Positions 7,822 through 63,610 of a DNA stretch of 64,000 nucleotides are shown here, piece by piece. The notes below the pieces were generated by a model. The model was not told the DNA's origin and made no database searches. It saw nothing but the letters and a program-made list of their open reading frames with translations. Location: positions 152-64,151 of the IMG/VR virus record IMGVR_UViG_3300037240_000024; one strand, written 5' to 3'. Numbering within the stretch: the first letter of the stretch is position 1; each line of letters begins with the position of its first letter. The DNA is from a virus. Made by a program: the position numbers and the translations under genes.

Positions 7822-8679
7822 ATGGCTCTTGCGGAATATGTCAACGACTCCTCGATTCTGCTGAACGACCCTAATTTTTCGTTCACGTCGAAGAACCAAC
7901 TTCTCAGATGGATCAACACCGGGCGTGACGAACTCGTCATGCGGACAGGCTGCATCCGCCGGCTCATCACCGGCCAGTCGGCGTTTGGCGCTTCGGCGCA
8001 GCCAGGTTTCGCTATCCCCGGTGGGATGCAGCCTGGGGCCATACCCGACGCCGTTGACAACCAAGGCGCTGCCGGCGGGGCTTTCAGCGACGCCTACAGT
8101 AACGCCTATGCGCAGGCCGGCGGCGCGGCGTCTGGGGCCACAGTCACACTCAATATGCAGACGATCGCAGGTCTCGAACGCTACCCTTACGTCGGGTTTT
8201 TCAACCCCGTGCTTCAGGCGCAGCACGCCGGCTGCGATCGTGTGATCGACACGATAGCGCTCAGCGTGAACTGGGGTGGCGTCAACCGACCGACGCTCGA
8301 CTGGATGCCATGGGATGAATTTCAGGCGTATTGCCGTGCTTACGCGGTGCTCAACACGTCTTTCCCGAGCGTCTGGAGCGTGTTCGGCGACGGCTCGCTT
8401 GGCGAACTGTGGATGTTTCCGATCCCGAGCCAAGCCGGTGACATCGAGGCCGACGTGTTCGCACTACCGAAACCGATCTATGAGAATGATGATTTCGAGG
8501 CGATCCCGCGCGAATTCCGCAAAGGCGTGAAGTTCGTCGCTGCCAAGATGGCGTTTATGTCGTCAGGTCGCTATGCGCAGGCGCAGGAGATGGAGCAGGC
8601 GTTCGCCAGTTCGCTCGGGATCGCGCGCGTCAGTGTGGATCGCGGTAAGACGAAGTCCTACTATCCGACCTTCCCGTAG
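7822..8679 (+). CDS. head-tail adaptor-like protein
   Basis: N-terminal MALAEYVND...LLRWINTGRDEL and C-terminal ...WMFPIP...AIPREFRKGVKFVAAKMAF pattern of head completion proteins. Confidence 0.55.
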   Translation: MALAEYVNDSSILLNDPNFSFTSKNQLLRWINTGRDELVMRTGCIRRLITGQSAFGASAQPGFAIPGGMQPGAIPDAVDNQGAAGGAFSDAYSNAYAQAGGAASGATVTLNMQTIAGLERYPYVGFFNPVLQAQHAGCDRVIDTIALSVNWGGVNRPTLDWMPWDEFQAYCRAYAVLNTSFPSVWSVFGDGSLGELWMFPIPSQAGDIEADVFALPKPIYENDDFEAIPREFRKGVKFVAAKMAFMSSGRYAQAQEMEQAFASSLGIARVSVDRGKTKSYYPTFP

Positions 8680-56611: not shown

Positions 56612-57079
56612 ATGGCGAAACGGAAGATTCCGCCTATGCCGGTCGAGTTTTTCGCCACGCATCCCCAAATCATCGGCCTAAACACTGCCGCGCTTGGTAC
56701 GCTCTGGCGCTTGCTGCTGCATTTCTGGATGACGGATTGCGCGCCGCTTCCCGATACGGACTATGCGCTTTTCCTGCTGTCCAGGTCGCACAAGCCGACG
56801 TGGGCGAGTTACAAAGCAGAGATTCGCGAGATTTTGGCGGACGTCACGCCCGATCTGGCCGAAGCGTTGGCGCTCTATCGCAAGCGATCCTCTATTCTAG
56901 GCCATCTTGGCGATAGAGGTAACTCGACGCAAAGGTCGCGCCGAGTGAAGGCGGGTCAGAATGTTGAGTCCTCAACGTCGGAGATTTATACGCCTCGCCA
57001 GGCCGAACGGAATCGCGCTCCGGCGCCGGTCGCGCACGTAAAGCAAAGCGGTTCGGGGTTCGTCGAGAAGCCGAGGTAG
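56612..57079 (+). CDS. YdaU/DUF1376-like protein
   Basis: MPVEFF..H...GLNTAALGTLWRLLLHFW....PLPD.D..L pattern. Confidence 0.6.
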   Translation: MAKRKIPPMPVEFFATHPQIIGLNTAALGTLWRLLLHFWMTDCAPLPDTDYALFLLSRSHKPTWASYKAEIREILADVTPDLAEALALYRKRSSILGHLGDRGNSTQRSRRVKAGQNVESSTSEIYTPRQAERNRAPAPVAHVKQSGSGFVEKPR

Positions 57080-57488
57080 CATCGAATAACAGGCTGTACG
57101 ATCTTCGCTTGGTTAGCCTATGCGGCGGAAGTCTTATTTCTCGCAAGAAACCGTCCAGCCGCTGCGCCTCTACGCCAGCTTGCAGCCTCGCCAGGCGAGC
57201 CAATCAAGCCATTTCGACCCACTATATGTAGTGACGTCTTGTTACCGTCAAAAAGGAGTACCTTTGTGACGATGCTAAGCCGTTGATACATATAGGCTTA
57301 GCGGCTCGTCGCCTGGCGCTGGCACGGCGCGGTTTCGGCGAGGCGATGGGGTTCGGGGCCTACGACTGGAAGGGGCTCGGCTTTCTGCGCCCCGTAGAAA
57401 TGACCGCCGTACATCTTGTTATCCGCCCTGAAAGCCTATAAGGTGTCCCACAGCCCAGCAAAACCGGGCCTTAGCGGGAGATACGGCT

Positions 57489-57752
57489 ATGCTGAGCGGA
57501 CGTATTCAGAATGCTACGCGGACTCTTGGCGCTCCCCTAGACTGGGACAGCGAACGAGACGGCGCTTGTGTTGGCCTGACGGTTCGAGATGAGCAAACTA
57601 CCGCCGGGCCGACGATGTTCTCAGCATGGTTTCCGACGCCGGCCGAGGTGGCGCGGATCGTGGAGGGAGCGCCAATCTATCTCGGCATTCTCGGCACGGT
57701 ACATCCGCCTGTCGTTATGAGCGTCGGCCCCAGACCGGGCTACGAAGGCTGA
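57489..57752 (+). CDS. hypothetical protein
   Basis: TRTLGAPLDWD...SAWFPTPAE...GAPIYL...HPPV motif; RBS GGGAG. Confidence 0.65.
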   Translation: MLSGRIQNATRTLGAPLDWDSERDGACVGLTVRDEQTTAGPTMFSAWFPTPAEVARIVEGAPIYLGILGTVHPPVVMSVGPRPGYEG

Positions 57753-57858
57753 CCGGGAACCTCCCCCGCTCCGACGGCTTGACGCCGAGCGGCGCCGGGG
57801 CTATTCGAGAGGTCCGTGGGCTTCCCTGGTGGGTTGACATGGAAGCATCTAGCCCGAC

Positions 57859-57916
57859 GCTCATACGGCTGACGAGCTGCTGAAATGCAGCGAAACGTGA
57901 AAACGTCCCGTGGAGC
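57859..57916 (+). ncRNA. type I hammerhead ribozyme
   Basis: Core CTGACGA (57869-75); stem II GCTGC/GCAGC with loop TGAAAT; GAAA; stem III ACGT/ACGT with GAAA loop; GTC cleavage triplet (57905-07); stem I GCTCATACGG/CCGTGGAGC with one bulge. Confidence 0.88.
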
Positions 57917-57957
57917 CTCCCAAGTTGGGGAATAACTGGAGGCCTAGGCCCGCCGCT

Positions 57958-57999
57958 GAAAACGCCGTCCCGCATCGCACCGGGGCGGCGTTTTCGTTT
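57958..57999 (+). terminator. 14-bp hairpin, probable (bidirectional) terminator
   Basis: GAAAACGCCGTCCC-10nt-GGGGCGGCGTTTTC then GTTT. Confidence 0.7.
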
Positions 58000-58052
58000 G
58001 ACGGCGCTCCAAAAGCATGTCATCTGATCGGATGGTGTCAACGGAGGATGCG

Positions 58053-58397
58053 ATGAATTACGTCGATCTCACCCATTTCGAAAATACGTTTCGCGATCTC
58101 GACACGGCGCAGGGCGTTGCGCTGTCCGACTGGGCCAAGCCATCCAGTGTCGAAGTCAAGTTCACCAACGGCGGAACGAAGCAGCGGCACATCCCAATCG
58201 TCGATCACGAAGCTACCGCCAATTTCCGGCTCGGTGTGATCGAGGCGCTTCAGATTGAGAATGGCCGGCTGCGCGCCGATCTGAAGACAGCGGCCAATCT
58301 CTATTTTGGTCTGATCCAGGAGGCTGAGCCGATTCCGACGCCTGGTGAGGTGCTGGCGAAGGTGTTATCCTCCGACGATTACTGGACAGGAGCGTGA
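58053..58397 (+). CDS. hypothetical protein
   Basis: RBS GGAGGA; start MNYVDL. Confidence 0.6.
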   Translation: MNYVDLTHFENTFRDLDTAQGVALSDWAKPSSVEVKFTNGGTKQRHIPIVDHEATANFRLGVIEALQIENGRLRADLKTAANLYFGLIQEAEPIPTPGEVLAKVLSSDDYWTGA

Positions 58398-58398
58398 G

Positions 58399-58644
58399 AT
58401 GTTGAAGATTGCCGCAACGTTTTTGCTCTTCGCGACTGCGGTTAGAGCGGACGTAGTCGATCTGAACGATTTTCTCTCGCCGGGTTACAAGCCTGGCGAC
58501 GACGTCTCTATTCCGTTGCAGAAAGCGATCGACTCGGCGTGCGCAGCGACGCCGCTCGATCCGGTCGTGCTGCTTTCTTACGGCGTGGTGAACATAAAAG
58601 AAAGCATACACGGTACGTGCGGTGTAACGCTGCAAATTCGATAG
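58399..58644 (+). CDS. small signal-peptide protein resembling the N-terminal cap of a pectate-lyase-like beta-helix
   Basis: MLKIAATFLLFATAVRA then ...GDDVSIPLQKAIDSACA...VVLLSYGVVNI. Confidence 0.55.
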   Translation: MLKIAATFLLFATAVRADVVDLNDFLSPGYKPGDDVSIPLQKAIDSACAATPLDPVVLLSYGVVNIKESIHGTCGVTLQIR

Positions 58645-58774
58645 GAGCGTGAGATGGCCGAAGCGGCTATGTTCGTCACGCTCATCGCGCTGATCTCCTA
58701 TTGCGCCTATCTGGATCGGCGTGAGCATCCGAAGCCGAAGCCGGCGAAGGAACGGAAGTTTCGATCTTTCTGAT

Positions 58775-58826
58775 TGACTTTTCCGTCAAAATGCTTTAGA
58801 CCTTTCTGATAAATGGAGGGTCTAAA
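58775..58826. promoter_or_regulatory. res-like site: two inverted repeats upstream of the recombinase
   Basis: TTGAC-6-GTCAA (58775-58790) and TTTAGACC-16-GGTCTAAA (58795-58826), ending at the ATG. Confidence 0.55.
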
Positions 58827-59381
58827 ATGCGCTACGGCTACGCTCGTGTCTCCACCCAGGACCAGAGCCTTGAGATCCAAATCGCCGATCTGACGAAGGC
58901 CGGCTGCGGCGACATCAGGTCCGAGAAGGTCAGCGGCGGCTCGATTCATAATCGCGATGAGTTCGTCAAGCTTCTCTGGGATTTGAAGCGCGGCGACGAA
59001 TTGTGGGTCGTGCGTATCGACCGATTCGCTCGTAGCCTCGCCGATCTCGCGGTGACGGTGCGCGATCTGACGAAGCGCGGCGTGGTTCTCAAAGCCACGC
59101 AGCAGCCCATCGACACCACGACCGCTTCGGGGAATGCGTTCCTTGGGATGCTCGGGGTGTTCGCCGAGTTCGAGCGCAGCCTTACGGCCGAGCGCCAGGC
59201 CGTCGGAATCGCGGCGGCTCACGCGGCGGGCAAGTACGAGAAATGCGGCCGACCGTGCGTGACGGGTCATATCGACAAGCAGGAGGTGAAGGCGATGCTG
59301 GAGCGGGACGGCCGGGTGAAGACGGCCAAACATTACCGGCTGTCGGAGAGCGCGATTTACAGACTGGCGAGGGCGGCGTGA
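58827..59381 (+). CDS. small serine recombinase (resolvase/invertase family)
   Basis: MRYGYARVSTQDQ, GD.L.V.RIDRFARS, FAEFER, C-terminal HTH. Confidence 0.92.
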   Translation: MRYGYARVSTQDQSLEIQIADLTKAGCGDIRSEKVSGGSIHNRDEFVKLLWDLKRGDELWVVRIDRFARSLADLAVTVRDLTKRGVVLKATQQPIDTTTASGNAFLGMLGVFAEFERSLTAERQAVGIAAAHAAGKYEKCGRPCVTGHIDKQEVKAMLERDGRVKTAKHYRLSESAIYRLARAA

Positions 59382-59644
59382 CCGACGAAGATATTGAATA
59401 CGTCATCAAGATCGTAGCCGACGCGGCTTGGGGTCTTGCATCTCGTGAGAGCGACGGCGACGGCGACCCAAATCGGAATCTCTGTCTTCGCATTGAGGAC
59501 TTGAGCGACGACCCGGTCGTCAGCAAGAACCTTCTCGCGCACGTCAAGGCGCTACTTGTTCGCGATGAAAAGTCTTCTGACTGGGAGATGCACTTGGATG
59601 CGTGGTTTGCGGAAAGCGCCTTGACACGCCATCCGATCCTATGA
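59378..59644 (+). CDS. hypothetical acidic protein
   Basis: GTGA overlap with the recombinase. Confidence 0.55.
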   Translation: MTDEDIEYVIKIVADAAWGLASRESDGDGDPNRNLCLRIEDLSDDPVVSKNLLAHVKALLVRDEKSSDWEMHLDAWFAESALTRHPIL

Positions 59645-61178: not shown

Positions 61179-61498
61179 TGTCTGAACTTCTCATCCCACG
61201 CCGTCGTTTTTTGCAAGGCATGGCGACTTTGTTTGTCGCCCCGGCGATCATCAAGGCGTCGTCGCTGATGCCGGTGAAATCTTGGCGTGAAGTTTGGCTC
61301 TGGCCGGTGCCGCCGGACGGTCGCAGCGTGACGTTTTTCGGTGGTCGTGTTTGGTGGCTGCACGATTCGGACTGTTCAGGTATGTTCTATTCCGAAGTCG
61401 GGGATTGGTTATCGCATCCTCAAGCGGCGCAGATTGAGATGCGCCCGTTCGTATTGAAAGATACTTTTACAAGAACCGATCATGCGGTTGCAGGCTGA
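61178..61498 (+). CDS. hypothetical protein with twin-arginine-like N-terminus
   Basis: RRRFLQGMATLFVAPAIIKASSLMPVK. Confidence 0.55.
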   Translation: MSELLIPRRRFLQGMATLFVAPAIIKASSLMPVKSWREVWLWPVPPDGRSVTFFGGRVWWLHDSDCSGMFYSEVGDWLSHPQAAQIEMRPFVLKDTFTRTDHAVAG

Positions 61499-63378
61499 TG
61501 GCCCTCAAGGCGTCGAAGTGGCTGAAGGCGTTCGAGACTTTCGCGGCTGATCTCAGGATCAAGTCGAAGGAAGAAGTCTCGATCGATCAGCACGGCGTTC
61601 CGCTCAGCATCTGGGTCAGCCAGCGCCGGTTCCTGGAGGAGATAGGCAACGGCCTCGATAGCGGCATCCACAGCTTCAACATTCTCAAGAGCCGACAGCT
61701 CGGCGTCACGACCCTGTCGGTCGCGCTGGTGGACGTGTTCTGGCCGGCCATGCACCCCGGCATCATCGGCTGTCTCGTCACCGACACCGAGAAGAATCGC
61801 GAACTCAACCGCGCGATGATCGAGGGTTACATCAACTCGTTCCCCGATGGTTATTTCGGCGGGAAATTCTCGATCACCCGGTCGAACCGGCAGATGCTCC
61901 AGTTTAGCAACGGATCTCGGCTCGATCTGCTGGTGGCCGGCACGAAGAAGAAAGCGATCGCCTGGGGTGAAGGTCAGGGCTACGCCTTCGCCCATCTCAC
62001 GGAATTGGCCTCCTACGGTGACGTTGAGGGCTTGAAGTCTCTTGAAGAAGGCTTCGCTCAGTCCAATCCGCATCGGCTGTTCGTGCGTGAATCCACGGCG
62101 AAAGGCTACAACCATTGGCGAGCCCGCTGGGTCGCCGGCAAGAACTCGCTCACCGAGCGCAGCTTCTTCATCGGTTGGTGGAGCGGCGACAAGAACCGGA
62201 TCGAGCGCAAGGACGCGCGCTTCAACCAGTTCGGTCTCTACCCGCCGAACCCCGAAGAGAAGGGCAAGATCGAACTGGTGCGGCAGGCGTACGGCTGGAA
62301 GATCACGCCCGAGCAGCTTGCGTGGCATCGCTGGAAGCGCACCGACGCCGGCGCCGAGCAGGGTCTGCTCGATCAGAATCAGCCGTGGGACGAACAGGAA
62401 GCGTTCGTCATGTCCGGCTACAGCTTCTTCCAGACGCGCGTCATCGACAGCGACTTGAAGGCGCTGCTGGACGATCCGCCGATCTTCAAGGGTTATCGCT
62501 ATCAGGTCGACGGCGATTTCTACAGCTTCAAGATGATGGCTCTGGACCCGGAGATCGACAGTGTCGATGACGTCGAACTCAAGGTTTGGGAAGAGCCTGT
62601 GGACGGAGCCAAATATGCGATTGGTTTTGATCCAGCCTACGGGCGAAATGAGCATAAGGATGGAAGCGCCATTGTCGTGCTACGGTGCTTTGCTGATCGC
62701 GTTGTGCAGGTTGCAGAATATAGGTCGTCTGAGGTTGAGGCTCGACACGCCGCCTGGGTGGCTTTCCATATCTGCGCCGCTTACCGAGACTGCATGATAA
62801 ACGTCGAACTGACCGGGCCGGGGCGGCTCGTGATGGCTGAGTTCGATCATCTCCGTCAGCTTCTCGGCGCCGAGATGAACGTCGCGCGCACCGAGCAGCG
62901 CGGTTGGCAGGACGCAGCGGCCAACGCGCGCTGGTTCCTGCACCACAGGGAAGACTCGTTCGGCTCCGGCTTTGCGGCGAATTACGAAACGACGTGGCGC
63001 TACAAGCAGGAAATGCTTTACAAGCTGAAAGGCTCGTACGTCAGCCGCGAACTCGACATCCGTTCGATGGCGCTGCTGAACGAGATGAAAAATGTCGTGG
63101 TCGACAACGACGACATCGGAGCACCTGAGTCCACCGACGAGGACAAGAAGGACGATCGTGTCTTCGCGCTCGGTCTCGCCAATCTCGCATGGATGTCGTG
63201 GATCAGAAAAGAGATGATCTCGCAGGGGCTGACCTATGACACGGTCATGGCGGCCGAGCGTGGCGACACCGAACTGGCGACGCACGGGCTCAATAGCCTG
63301 GTGTATCGTTTTCTCGCTCGGGCTGACGAGCCGATCGAGAAAGAACCGACGTGGCGCGAACTTCAAGGTCTGGAATAG
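61498..63378 (+). CDS. terL: terminase large subunit
   Basis: LKSRQLGVTT Walker A, HLTELASY Walker B, RESTAKG, FDPAYG and DDRVFAL nuclease motifs. Confidence 0.9.
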   Translation: MALKASKWLKAFETFAADLRIKSKEEVSIDQHGVPLSIWVSQRRFLEEIGNGLDSGIHSFNILKSRQLGVTTLSVALVDVFWPAMHPGIIGCLVTDTEKNRELNRAMIEGYINSFPDGYFGGKFSITRSNRQMLQFSNGSRLDLLVAGTKKKAIAWGEGQGYAFAHLTELASYGDVEGLKSLEEGFAQSNPHRLFVRESTAKGYNHWRARWVAGKNSLTERSFFIGWWSGDKNRIERKDARFNQFGLYPPNPEEKGKIELVRQAYGWKITPEQLAWHRWKRTDAGAEQGLLDQNQPWDEQEAFVMSGYSFFQTRVIDSDLKALLDDPPIFKGYRYQVDGDFYSFKMMALDPEIDSVDDVELKVWEEPVDGAKYAIGFDPAYGRNEHKDGSAIVVLRCFADRVVQVAEYRSSEVEARHAAWVAFHICAAYRDCMINVELTGPGRLVMAEFDHLRQLLGAEMNVARTEQRGWQDAAANARWFLHHREDSFGSGFAANYETTWRYKQEMLYKLKGSYVSRELDIRSMALLNEMKNVVVDNDDIGAPESTDEDKKDDRVFALGLANLAWMSWIRKEMISQGLTYDTVMAAERGDTELATHGLNSLVYRFLARADEPIEKEPTWRELQGLE

Positions 63379-63388
63379 GGAGGGTGAA

Positions 63389-63610
63389 ATGATGGATGAG
63401 ACTGAACGCTTGGCGCGGCTGATGGCGGCGCGCTACGGAGATCCAGACGCGCTGGTTTACAGAGGTGGATTGCAGAGGTTTGAGATTGGTTATGTTTTAC
63501 CGAAACCGAGCGACTCGGGCATTTGTCCTTACTGGCATCGGTTTCTCGGTGCGGCGCAAGTAGCTGTCGAGGACAGGAAGAAGGCCGAAGACATGAAGCG
63601 GGCCGATTGA
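63389..63610 (+). CDS. hypothetical protein
   Basis: RBS GGGAGG. Confidence 0.55.
   Translation: MMDETERLARLMAARYGDPDALVYRGGLQRFEIGYVLPKPSDSGICPYWHRFLGAAQVAVEDRKKAEDMKRAD

Follow-up and report, generated by a model that had tools for sequence, protein, structure and literature searches.

What is a complete hammerhead ribozyme motif doing in the gap between two phage genes, and does it stand there on its own? To our knowledge, hammerheads have been recognized in bacteria and phages since 2011, and a job has been assigned to almost none of them. The question is raised here by a stretch of 64,000 nucleotides (nt), referred to below as the window, which comprises positions 152 to 64,151 of virus record IMGVR_UViG_3300037240_000024 and covers almost the whole of an IMG/VR phage genome of 64.3 kb that is rated complete; the phage is present in peat and permafrost metagenomes. 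An original prediction, made from the letters alone, had placed a canonical type I hammerhead at 57859-57916, in the control region of the phage. The analysis below gives a different answer to the second half of the question, since the motif turned out to be an optional loop insert of a 142-nt double-pseudoknot RNA found in many other phages. To the first half it offers a likely answer, namely that this is a genuine self-cleaving hammerhead nested in that conserved phage RNA.

The motif can be read directly from the sequence as a complete type I hammerhead at 57864-57912 on the plus strand, with the following parts (bp, base pairs):

57869-57875, plus strand: the CUGACGA core (C3 U4 G5 A6 N7 G8 A9), from the sequence.
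57876-57880 with 57887-57891, plus strand: stem II, 5 bp, from the sequence, in which G57876-C57891 is the pair G10.1-C11.1.
57881-57886, plus strand: loop II, UGAAAU, from the sequence.
57892-57895, plus strand: GAAA (G12 A13 A14), from the sequence.
57895-57898 with 57903-57906, plus strand: stem III, 4 bp with a GAAA tetraloop, in which A57895-U57906 is the pair A15.1-U16.1.
57907, plus strand: C17 (H17, not G), from the sequence.
57864-57868 with 57908-57912, plus strand: stem I, 5 bp, from the sequence, in which G57868-C57908 is the pair 2.1-1.1.
57907..57908, plus strand: the predicted self-cleavage site between C17 and C1.1, placed by the hammerhead rule and by the fixed position in the family described below.

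A check of the sequence found every core nucleotide named in the original prediction at its named position, and the pairing of all three stems around a UGAAAU loop II was borne out both by the letters and by a single descriptor match. C3 to A9, G12 to A14 and an H17 other than G are all present in 57864-57912, and three paired helices with stem I open at its far end give the topology of type I. In fact, when a type I descriptor was run over both strands of the 64-kb window, 57864-57912 was its single match. Among 300 dinucleotide-preserving shuffles of the window, the lax descriptor found a match in 4, and stems of at least 5, 5 and 4 bp in none. At lax settings the descriptor gives chance matches in ~1.3% of shuffled windows. 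A weak type III hammerhead-like match at 63304-63394 on the plus strand, where the terminase gene has its 3′ end, pairs in stems of 3, 3 and 6 bp; it appeared only at the laxest settings and is probably due to chance. With a chance rate near 1% per window and Rfam scores that stay below threshold (given further on), comparison with relatives was required in order to decide. Exact-sequence scans of IMG/VR for the stem II and stem III of this particular copy gave no match.

Relatives were sought in IMG/VR with two patterns. The first, in which only the hammerhead core, the UGAAAU loop and a stem II of 5 bp were fixed, returned many phage hammerheads, a subset of which have the long conserved 3′ extension of the window together with a 5′ flank that covaries with it. 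The second contained no hammerhead bases at all and consisted of GGAG, three free positions, CCC, one free position, AG, five free positions and GAATAACTGG. This extension-only pattern matches 109 IMG/VR stretches, against a chance estimate of ~0.4 (4^-19 per position times ~1.2e11 positions, with the collection size assumed), and a CUGANGA core lies just upstream of the extension in 74 of 94 distinct copies. The architecture was then parsed from 80 distinct, well-anchored copies. Its 5′ half consists of CGUGG, hairpin A (with the 5′ strand of helix B and UGACA in its loop), CAUCURG and the 5′ strand of helix C, in that order. Its 3′ half begins after the insert and consists of CGYGGAG, the 5′ strand of helix D, CC-N-A, the 3′ strand of helix C, GAAUAACU, the 3′ strand of helix D, CUAGR and the 3′ strand of helix B, where the first base of the helix C 3′ strand is the G of the CCCNAG motif.

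The window element is a member of this family of at least 80 distinct phage copies. A covariance model, R1, trained on 30 relatives but not on the window itself, gives a single full-length match there. The parts listed here are supported by counts from alignment A2, a MAFFT alignment of 31 copies in which pairs were counted over helices A to D and hammerhead stem I:

57815..57956, plus strand: the whole RNA element, scaffold plus hammerhead insert (model R1, 132.3 bits, E 8.2e-36).
57815..57819, plus strand: the invariant 5′ motif CGUGG, where the element starts (invariant columns in A2).
57820..57846, plus strand: hairpin A, 57820-57825 with 57841-57846 (100% paired in A2, 5 of 6 pairs compensatory).
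57828..57833, plus strand: the 5′ strand of helix B, pairing with 57949-57954 (6 of 6 pairs compensatory).
57949..57954, plus strand: the 3′ strand of helix B (pairing and covariation counts).
57847..57852, plus strand: conserved AUCUAG, family consensus CAUCURG (invariant columns in A2).
57853..57858, plus strand: the 5′ strand of helix C, 57853-57858 with 57924-57929 (100% paired in A2, 5 of 6 pairs compensatory).
57912..57939, plus strand: the conserved 3′ core, made of GGAG, three variable positions, CCC, one variable, AG, five variable and GAAUAACUGG.
57915..57943, plus strand: helix D, 57915-57920 with 57938-57943 (100% paired in A2; all three variable positions covary).

Helix B crosses hairpin A, whose loop contains both the helix B 5′ strand and the conserved UGACA (57835-57839), and this makes the first pseudoknot; helix D crosses helix C to make the second, and the hammerhead sits in the loop that helix C closes. 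The invariant motifs CGUGG, CAUCURG, CGYGGAG, CCCNAG and GAAUAACUGG are all present in the window, as is the helix order A5′ B5′ A3′ C5′ (insert) D5′ C3′ D3′ B3′, with two small departures in this copy, a G for the usual A at 57859 and GC for AC after helix B. The 3′-core pattern occurs once in the window, where 0.02 occurrences are expected with 3 mismatches allowed. Without its insert the scaffold measures ~105 nt, and it combines ~40 invariant nucleotides with the two pseudoknots. A further helix E may be formed by CUAGG at 57944-57948 with AUCUAG at 57847-57852; the pairing of UCURG with CUAGR had no covariation support, at 88.5% paired versus 87.6% when shuffled.

Helices A to D and hammerhead stems I to III covary. 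In A2, 96.4% of the cells are paired, versus 70.2% with shuffled partners (none of 500 shuffles came up to 96.4%) and 38-47% when the partners are displaced by 1-3 columns, and changes on both sides were counted in 21 of the 29 pairs. Over the 80 copies, helix C is 99.8% paired versus 77% shuffled and helix D 99.8% versus 78%, helix D being fixed in position and helix C anchored by the adjacent conserved motif. The corresponding values for helix A (99% versus 68%) and helix B (95% versus 44%) are biased upward, because the 5′ strands of both were found by a best-complement search. The kind of exchange also reveals the strand that matters. G-U pairs are frequent and their mirror, C-A, is absent, with counts of 17:0 in helix A, 8:0 in helix C and 2:0 in helix D (27:0 in total), which identifies the plus strand as the functional RNA strand. 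The window has wobbles of its own, U57830-G57952 in helix B and G57856-U57926 in helix C, that pair on the plus strand only.

Two open reading frames (ORFs), at 57715-58041 on the minus strand and 57626-57883 on the plus strand (108 and 85 amino acids), overlap the RNA element and the terminator that follows it, and both are probably not genes. Insert lengths of 6-188 nt without triplet periodicity, taken together with the covariation, rule out a coding explanation for the antisense ORF at 57715-58041; antisense ORFs over the element cluster between loci for the sole reason that the nucleotide sequence is conserved.

The place of the hammerhead in this RNA becomes clear when the insert site, between the 5′ strand of helix C and CGYGGAG, is compared across the 80 copies:

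29 of 80 copies: a strictly canonical hammerhead insert.
34 of 80 copies: a CUGANGA core whose 10.1-11.1 pair is non-standard or whose stem II is very short.
9 of 80 copies: another insert, comprising plain hairpins and three visibly decayed hammerheads (L155, L157 and L166).
8 of 80 copies: a linker of at most 10 nt.

A hammerhead core occupies the same scaffold loop in 63 of the 80 distinct copies, and in 29 of 29 strictly canonical copies the cut site lies exactly 4 nt 5′ of GGAG. The hammerhead is an optional module with a constant loop and a constant cut position. The cut forecast after 57907 coincides with this fixed position, and the assignment to type I now extends to dozens of phage relatives in which stems and core are conserved and covary. 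The distal part of stem I proposed in the original prediction (GCUC at 57859-57862 with GAGC at 57913-57916 and a bulged A), which was to suit a tertiary contact, had to be given up, as it is not kept in relatives and overlaps GGAG and helix D; stem I is read here as 5 bp entering the scaffold junction directly.

Position-by-position counts were made over the 63 core-bearing copies, whose positions are anchored on the core and on GGAG and leave little alignment freedom. The pair A15.1-U16.1 is present in all 63. The next pair, 15.2-16.2, is C-G in 60 and U-A in 3, and five to six pair types occur at 15.3 and 15.4 with mispairs nearly absent; stem III as a whole reaches 98.8% pairing and has 4-6 pair types. 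In stem II, positions 10.2 and 10.3 have four to five types. H17 is C in 43 copies, A in 19, U in 1 and G in none, while the 2.1-1.1 pair is CG in 29, GC in 25, AU in 6 and UG in 3, and is never unpaired. The 10.1-11.1 pair is mixed (GC 26, GU 3, AU 1, UU 16, AA 15, CA 2), and the window copy, with its G10.1-C11.1, is among the most canonical of the family. Compensatory changes are found in the hammerhead stems of the homologues, and these statistics, as a record left in sequence, bear the mark of selection for a hammerhead that works.

Other phages have similar hammerheads, with an identical loop II, that stand free, and the module appears on this account to move between contexts. One free-standing variant, widespread in AT-rich phages, has CUGAUGA followed by UUAGC-UGAAAU-GCUAU, with U-U at 10.1-11.1 (L029, L036, L040, L041, L044, L052, L060 and others), and several contigs have two or three hammerheads (for example L098, L044, L077 and L029).

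The surroundings of the window copy can be described from three neighbouring features:

57489..57752, plus strand: upstream gene for an 87-amino-acid (87-aa) protein, with 33 homologues at 43-70% identity.
57957..57999, plus strand: intrinsic terminator, hairpin 57957-57996 plus a U-rich tail (-36.1 kcal/mol, z -5.44, 0 of 200 shuffles as stable).
58827-59381, plus strand: resolvase-type serine recombinase gene, in a same-strand run toward the terminase gene.

The element begins 62 nt after the 87-aa reading frame stops, probably within the 3′ untranslated region of that gene, and the terminator starts 2 nt after the element. The location first given for the hammerhead, between a gene and a strong terminator, is correct, the gene at 57489-57752 being a real one. 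The serine recombinase that had been noted about 0.9 kb downstream is likewise present as the resolvase gene, but its association with the element is not conserved among relatives. The genes downstream of the element are all on the plus strand and run via the resolvase to the terminase gene at 61498, 3.5 kb downstream of the element. A GC-rich hairpin region at 57756-57815, between the 87-aa stop codon and the element, has a z of -0.8 and is no better than shuffles. The 87-aa family (L017-L024) is found next to tail, portal/Mu-F and capsid-decoration genes, and the 87-aa gene looks like a mobile small gene.

Identical copies of the locus occur in other peat samples. A downstream 114-aa ORF has near-identical copies only, and the hammerhead region there is 100% identical; in population contigs the hammerhead is unchanged, and one strain differs within the element solely at 57944 (C to A). 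In a metagenomic contig of a related strain (run X6), 57808-57963 (156 nt, the whole element) is replaced by 110 letters that could not be read, and this replacement has the size of the insert-free scaffold. A BLAST search of 57000-59400 against named phages gave no match.

Across the family, a common context is that of tRNA genes. They are present in 23 of 79 loci, and all 180 of the tRNAs are on the strand of the element. In five arrays 1-2 nt separate the end of the preceding tRNA from CGUGG, and in five there are 3-5 nt between helix B and the start of the next tRNA. In such phage arrays the element takes the slot of a tRNA; tRNA-like packing was seen at L148, L159, L208, L153, L207, L154 and L195. 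Elsewhere the element is often enclosed by a long stem. A flanking stem of at least 9 bp surrounds 32 of the 80 copies, versus 8% in controls, and one of at least 12 bp surrounds 21 of the 80, versus 0.5%. This outer stem pairs the bases just 5′ of CGUGG with bases a few nt 3′ of helix B, and it reaches 13-14 bp within the 14-nt upstream flank examined (L165, L149, L158, L178, L180, L183, L211, L146, L166 and L221); it looks like an excision site for a double-strand-specific ribonuclease. No protein neighbour is constant, in that clustering of the ORFs within 3 kb of 110 loci gave none common to more than 15 loci. Rfam searches of the relatives' loci (ten at E up to 1 and five at E up to 10) gave tRNAs and noise, with nothing on the scaffold.

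Some carriers are lambdoid or cultured. In a lambdoid subgroup the element follows the Q antiterminator and tR′ and precedes holin and Rz, and a lambdoid-type copy occurs in Escherichia coli RefSeq genomes, where 745 records contain some or all of the query and 10 contain 80% of it or more; among the E. coli RefSeq records listed, no annotated feature lay under the match. A complete element with a canonical hammerhead (117 bits) is found in the cultured Arthrobacter phage Constance, where an HNH endonuclease gene near the genome end follows a short distance downstream. The gp68 of this phage, a 36-codon hypothetical protein (L260:1460-1570; MH834605.1 42702-42812), overlaps the 5′ half of the element (L260:1501-1645; MH834605.1 42743-42887) and is probably a spurious gene call. 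The exact 3′ motif was found in 18 contigs of one-per-species genomes, and the carrier contigs span Alpha- and Gammaproteobacteria, Actinobacteria, Chloroflexi, Bacteroidota, Firmicutes, Planctomycetes, Patescibacteria and Bdellovibrionota. Phages of at least eight bacterial phyla carry the element, and the scaffold probably acts on something common to all bacteria. One contig has, near its end (L090:13389-13416), a second and 5′-truncated copy of the 3′ half of the element; it is identical to the full copy at 8571 on the same contig and may be a terminal repeat or a recombination scar.

How firmly can the window copy be called a working ribozyme within such an RNA? A number of observations weigh against doing so. 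With Rfam 15 at gathering thresholds, zero families matched anywhere in the window. The original prediction had looked to Infernal and the Rfam hammerhead models for confirmation, and none of these reached its gathering score; the best local match, Hammerhead_HH9, scored 22.3 bits versus a gathering score of 52 (local E 0.0026), and a search of 57750-58050 at E up to 10 gave HH9 and terminator look-alikes, with nothing else. Relatives' hammerheads also fall below the Rfam threshold, and the low score stems from the narrowness of family-specific models and does not point to any absent core feature. The minimum-energy fold of the 58 nt at 57859-57916 favours a GACG-CGUC pairing over stem III, nearest-neighbour folding being a method that covers neither the hammerhead core nor pseudoknots, and the whole element is not clearly more stable than its shuffles (z -1.6). 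The UGAAAU loop II belongs to one subfamily and loop II sequences vary widely over the family; since relatives do not keep the bulged stem I either, it is not possible to name a tertiary contact from stem I to loop II, of the kind that fast cutting at cellular Mg2+ requires. Because 17 of the 80 copies have no hammerhead, 3 of them with decayed cores, cutting is not essential to the scaffold. The window phage was in none of the RNA runs, and it lacks both of the common family contexts, having no tRNA genes in the window and no flanking stem around its copy. Finally, homologues of the 87-aa gene stand in other phage contexts with no element or hammerhead after them, and terminase-related phages showed no hammerhead in the loci fetched, where most contigs were too short upstream. 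The element is patchy and mobile.

The strongest rival explanation holds that the hammerhead is conserved as sequence with no useful cutting in vivo; it would be there to give the structure of a three-way junction, or as a selfish passenger that a tolerant loop of the scaffold RNA accepts. The loop is tolerant, as copies with no insert, with a plain hairpin or with a decayed hammerhead all occur; among the hammerhead-bearing copies, half depart from a standard pair at 10.1-11.1 (the 16 UU and 15 AA copies counted above), no conserved contact between loop II and stem I is nameable, and an alternative fold competes with stem III. Yet the catalytic bases stay invariant, H17 is never G in 63 copies and the stems vary, which is the pattern expected of selection on catalysis and not on shape alone. 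Moreover, the window copy has a fully canonical core with G10.1-C11.1, and prophage hammerheads of this kind cleave in vitro (PMC3088659). We consider an insert that does not cut unlikely.

A rival that is slightly weaker again concerns the role of the scaffold and is compatible with a working hammerhead. In it, the scaffold is no free-standing stable RNA but a cis-acting leader of a late or packaging operon, for instance an RNA by which RNA polymerase reads through the terminator 2 nt downstream, and the hammerhead tunes or switches off this activity. The window would suit such a leader, its element standing directly before a strong terminator and an operon that runs toward the terminase gene at 61498, and so would the lambdoid copies between Q antiterminator/tR′ and the holin gene and the Constance copy ahead of the HNH endonuclease gene near the genome end. 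The lambdoid arrangement also works the other way, however, as the terminator there precedes the element. Many copies lie in tRNA arrays, packed like tRNA and with no terminator or protein gene to control, and a quarter or more of all copies lie inside long flanking stems, which suggests excision. As a general account of the scaffold, the leader seems improbable.

The possibility that the element acts as DNA is very remote. It would then be a recombination or attachment site for the serine recombinase or for tRNA-targeting integrases, and its helices would be inverted repeats, as might be supposed from the resolvase-type recombinase 0.9 kb downstream and from the copies that abut tRNA genes, which are common integration targets. 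The helix sequences vary freely, however, and only their complementarity is kept, while the one-sided G-U exchange in helices A, C and D (27:0) implies RNA from one strand. Neither a recombinase nor any other protein is a constant neighbour; in arrays the element lies between intact tRNA genes and on their strand, and it carries a ribozyme. Least probable of all is that GC-rich intergenic DNA resembles the hammerhead consensus by chance, an idea to which the sub-threshold Rfam scores and the lax descriptor's ~1.3% of shuffled windows (a rate at which any scan of many windows meets chance cases) lend some colour, and which is already refuted, barring alignment artefacts, by 0 of 300 shuffles of this quality, by the recurrence of the core in the same loop of the same element, with stems that covary, in 63 of 80 distinct relatives, and by the E of 8e-36 from R1.

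If the hammerhead does cut within its double-pseudoknot RNA, the order of events can be proposed. The element would be transcribed together with the upstream 87-aa gene, the transcript ending at the terminator at 57957-57999. The hammerhead would fold first and would cut between C57907 and C57908 once the 3′ strand of stem I emerges. The 5′ product would be the upstream RNA with a 2′,3′-cyclic phosphate end, and the 3′ product, of ~92 nt, would start with a 5′-OH and contain the conserved 3′ core, helix D and the terminator hairpin. The two pieces could stay joined through stem I and the 12 bp of helices B and C, and with this bridge in place the likely product is a nicked two-piece scaffold RNA rather than free fragments. 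The invariant CGYG of the stem I 3′ strand is kept even in copies that have no insert, of which L145, L159 and L156 are examples; the cut would on these grounds be an accessory step and not the function of the scaffold. It might serve maturation, release from the upstream message or a conformational change. The scaffold, rather than the hammerhead, is probably the working unit, and it looks like a discrete stable RNA that phages excise as they do a tRNA. Excision may fall to tRNA-processing enzymes in the arrays and may occur at the long flanking stem elsewhere, with the hammerhead as an extra that breaks one loop open or frees the RNA from the upstream message.

How does this arrangement compare with what is known? 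Hundreds of bacterial hammerheads have been described, many of them in prophages, where they flank genes or short gene blocks (Perreault et al. 2011, PMC3088659). The type I hammerheads of phages and prophages (PMC3088659; Rfam clan CL00010) share with the window copy the same core, the same junction, an open stem I, a cut after H17 and a location in phage intergenic DNA. Unlike them, the hammerhead described here is not free-standing; it is optional, and its stem I arises from a loop of a larger double-pseudoknot RNA. In addition, many members of the family have U-U or A-A at 10.1-11.1, whereas the search rules of PMC3088659 rejected a mispair adjoining the core.

A close parallel in context is offered by the HDV-like theta ribozymes, whose cut site abuts a tRNA 3′ end (Kienbeck et al. 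2024, PMC10879173). Like the element, they are small pseudoknotted phage RNAs set against same-strand tRNA genes, and the start of the element 1-2 nt after a tRNA in five arrays recalls the theta cut at the tRNA 3′ end. Unlike in theta, the only recognisable catalytic module here is the optional hammerhead, which is predicted to cut mid-element and not at the tRNA end, and the host range of the element is much wider. Membership in the HDV-like or theta group was rejected, as no Rfam HDV-family model matched the window region or relatives and the helix order differs, by inspection, from P1-P2-P3-P1.1-P4. Attempts to map the element by eye onto HDV-like, T-loop or tRNA-acceptor mimicry were unconvincing, and such mimicry is speculation only.

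The GOLLD and ROOL RNAs are large structured RNAs often found in prophages and beside tRNA genes (Weinberg et al. 2017, PMC5737381). They measure roughly 600-800 nt versus ~105 nt for the scaffold without its insert, and there is no sequence or model match between them. Theta ribozymes and GOLLD/ROOL are the nearest parallels in context, and relatives by no test made. Another likeness is to twister, a small two-pseudoknot RNA known near hammerheads, as the scaffold is. A stretch of rice twister resembles CCCAAG, a stem strand and then GAAUAACUGGAGG, a likeness that is dropped as a claim of membership. Twister was rejected, as there was no Rfam twister-P1/P3/P5 match at E up to 10 in the window region or five relatives, the strand order could not be mapped onto P1-P2-P4/T1-T2, and twister-P1 (RF03160) had no match over the whole genome at E up to 10. 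A literature search found no described hammerhead-linked RNA in tRNA arrays or lambdoid late leaders. The hammerhead itself is of a known kind (PMC3088659), whereas neither Rfam 15 nor RefSeq annotation has the scaffold or the nested arrangement, and the literature searches did not find them.

What, then, might the scaffold be? Occurrence in several phyla, pseudoknots and many invariant nucleotides are the features by which a "biochemically sophisticated" RNA has been recognized (PMC5737381), and the element has all of them, from which a demanding biochemical task can be expected. We tentatively propose, as an idea that could well prove wrong, that the ~105-nt scaffold is an undescribed class of functional RNA, a tRNA-like gene in phages of many phyla that is catalytic or binds a universally conserved cell component, with the hammerhead as its maturation module. 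A catalytic scaffold might process neighbouring tRNAs or late transcripts. A binding scaffold might have tRNA 3′ ends, RNase P, the ribosome or RNA polymerase as its partner. As a maturation module, the hammerhead would nick one loop and so free the invariant CGYGGAG strand.

For the biology of these phages, the finding gives a phage ribozyme a fixed address, in one loop of a larger RNA and at one fixed predicted bond. In annotation, the element accounts for short spurious ORFs called over it, Constance gp68 being an example. Cultured carriers exist in Arthrobacter phage Constance and in the lambdoid prophages of E. coli. With these in hand, the general question of what phage hammerheads are for becomes a concrete one, namely what the scaffold does and what effect the nicking of its loop would have.

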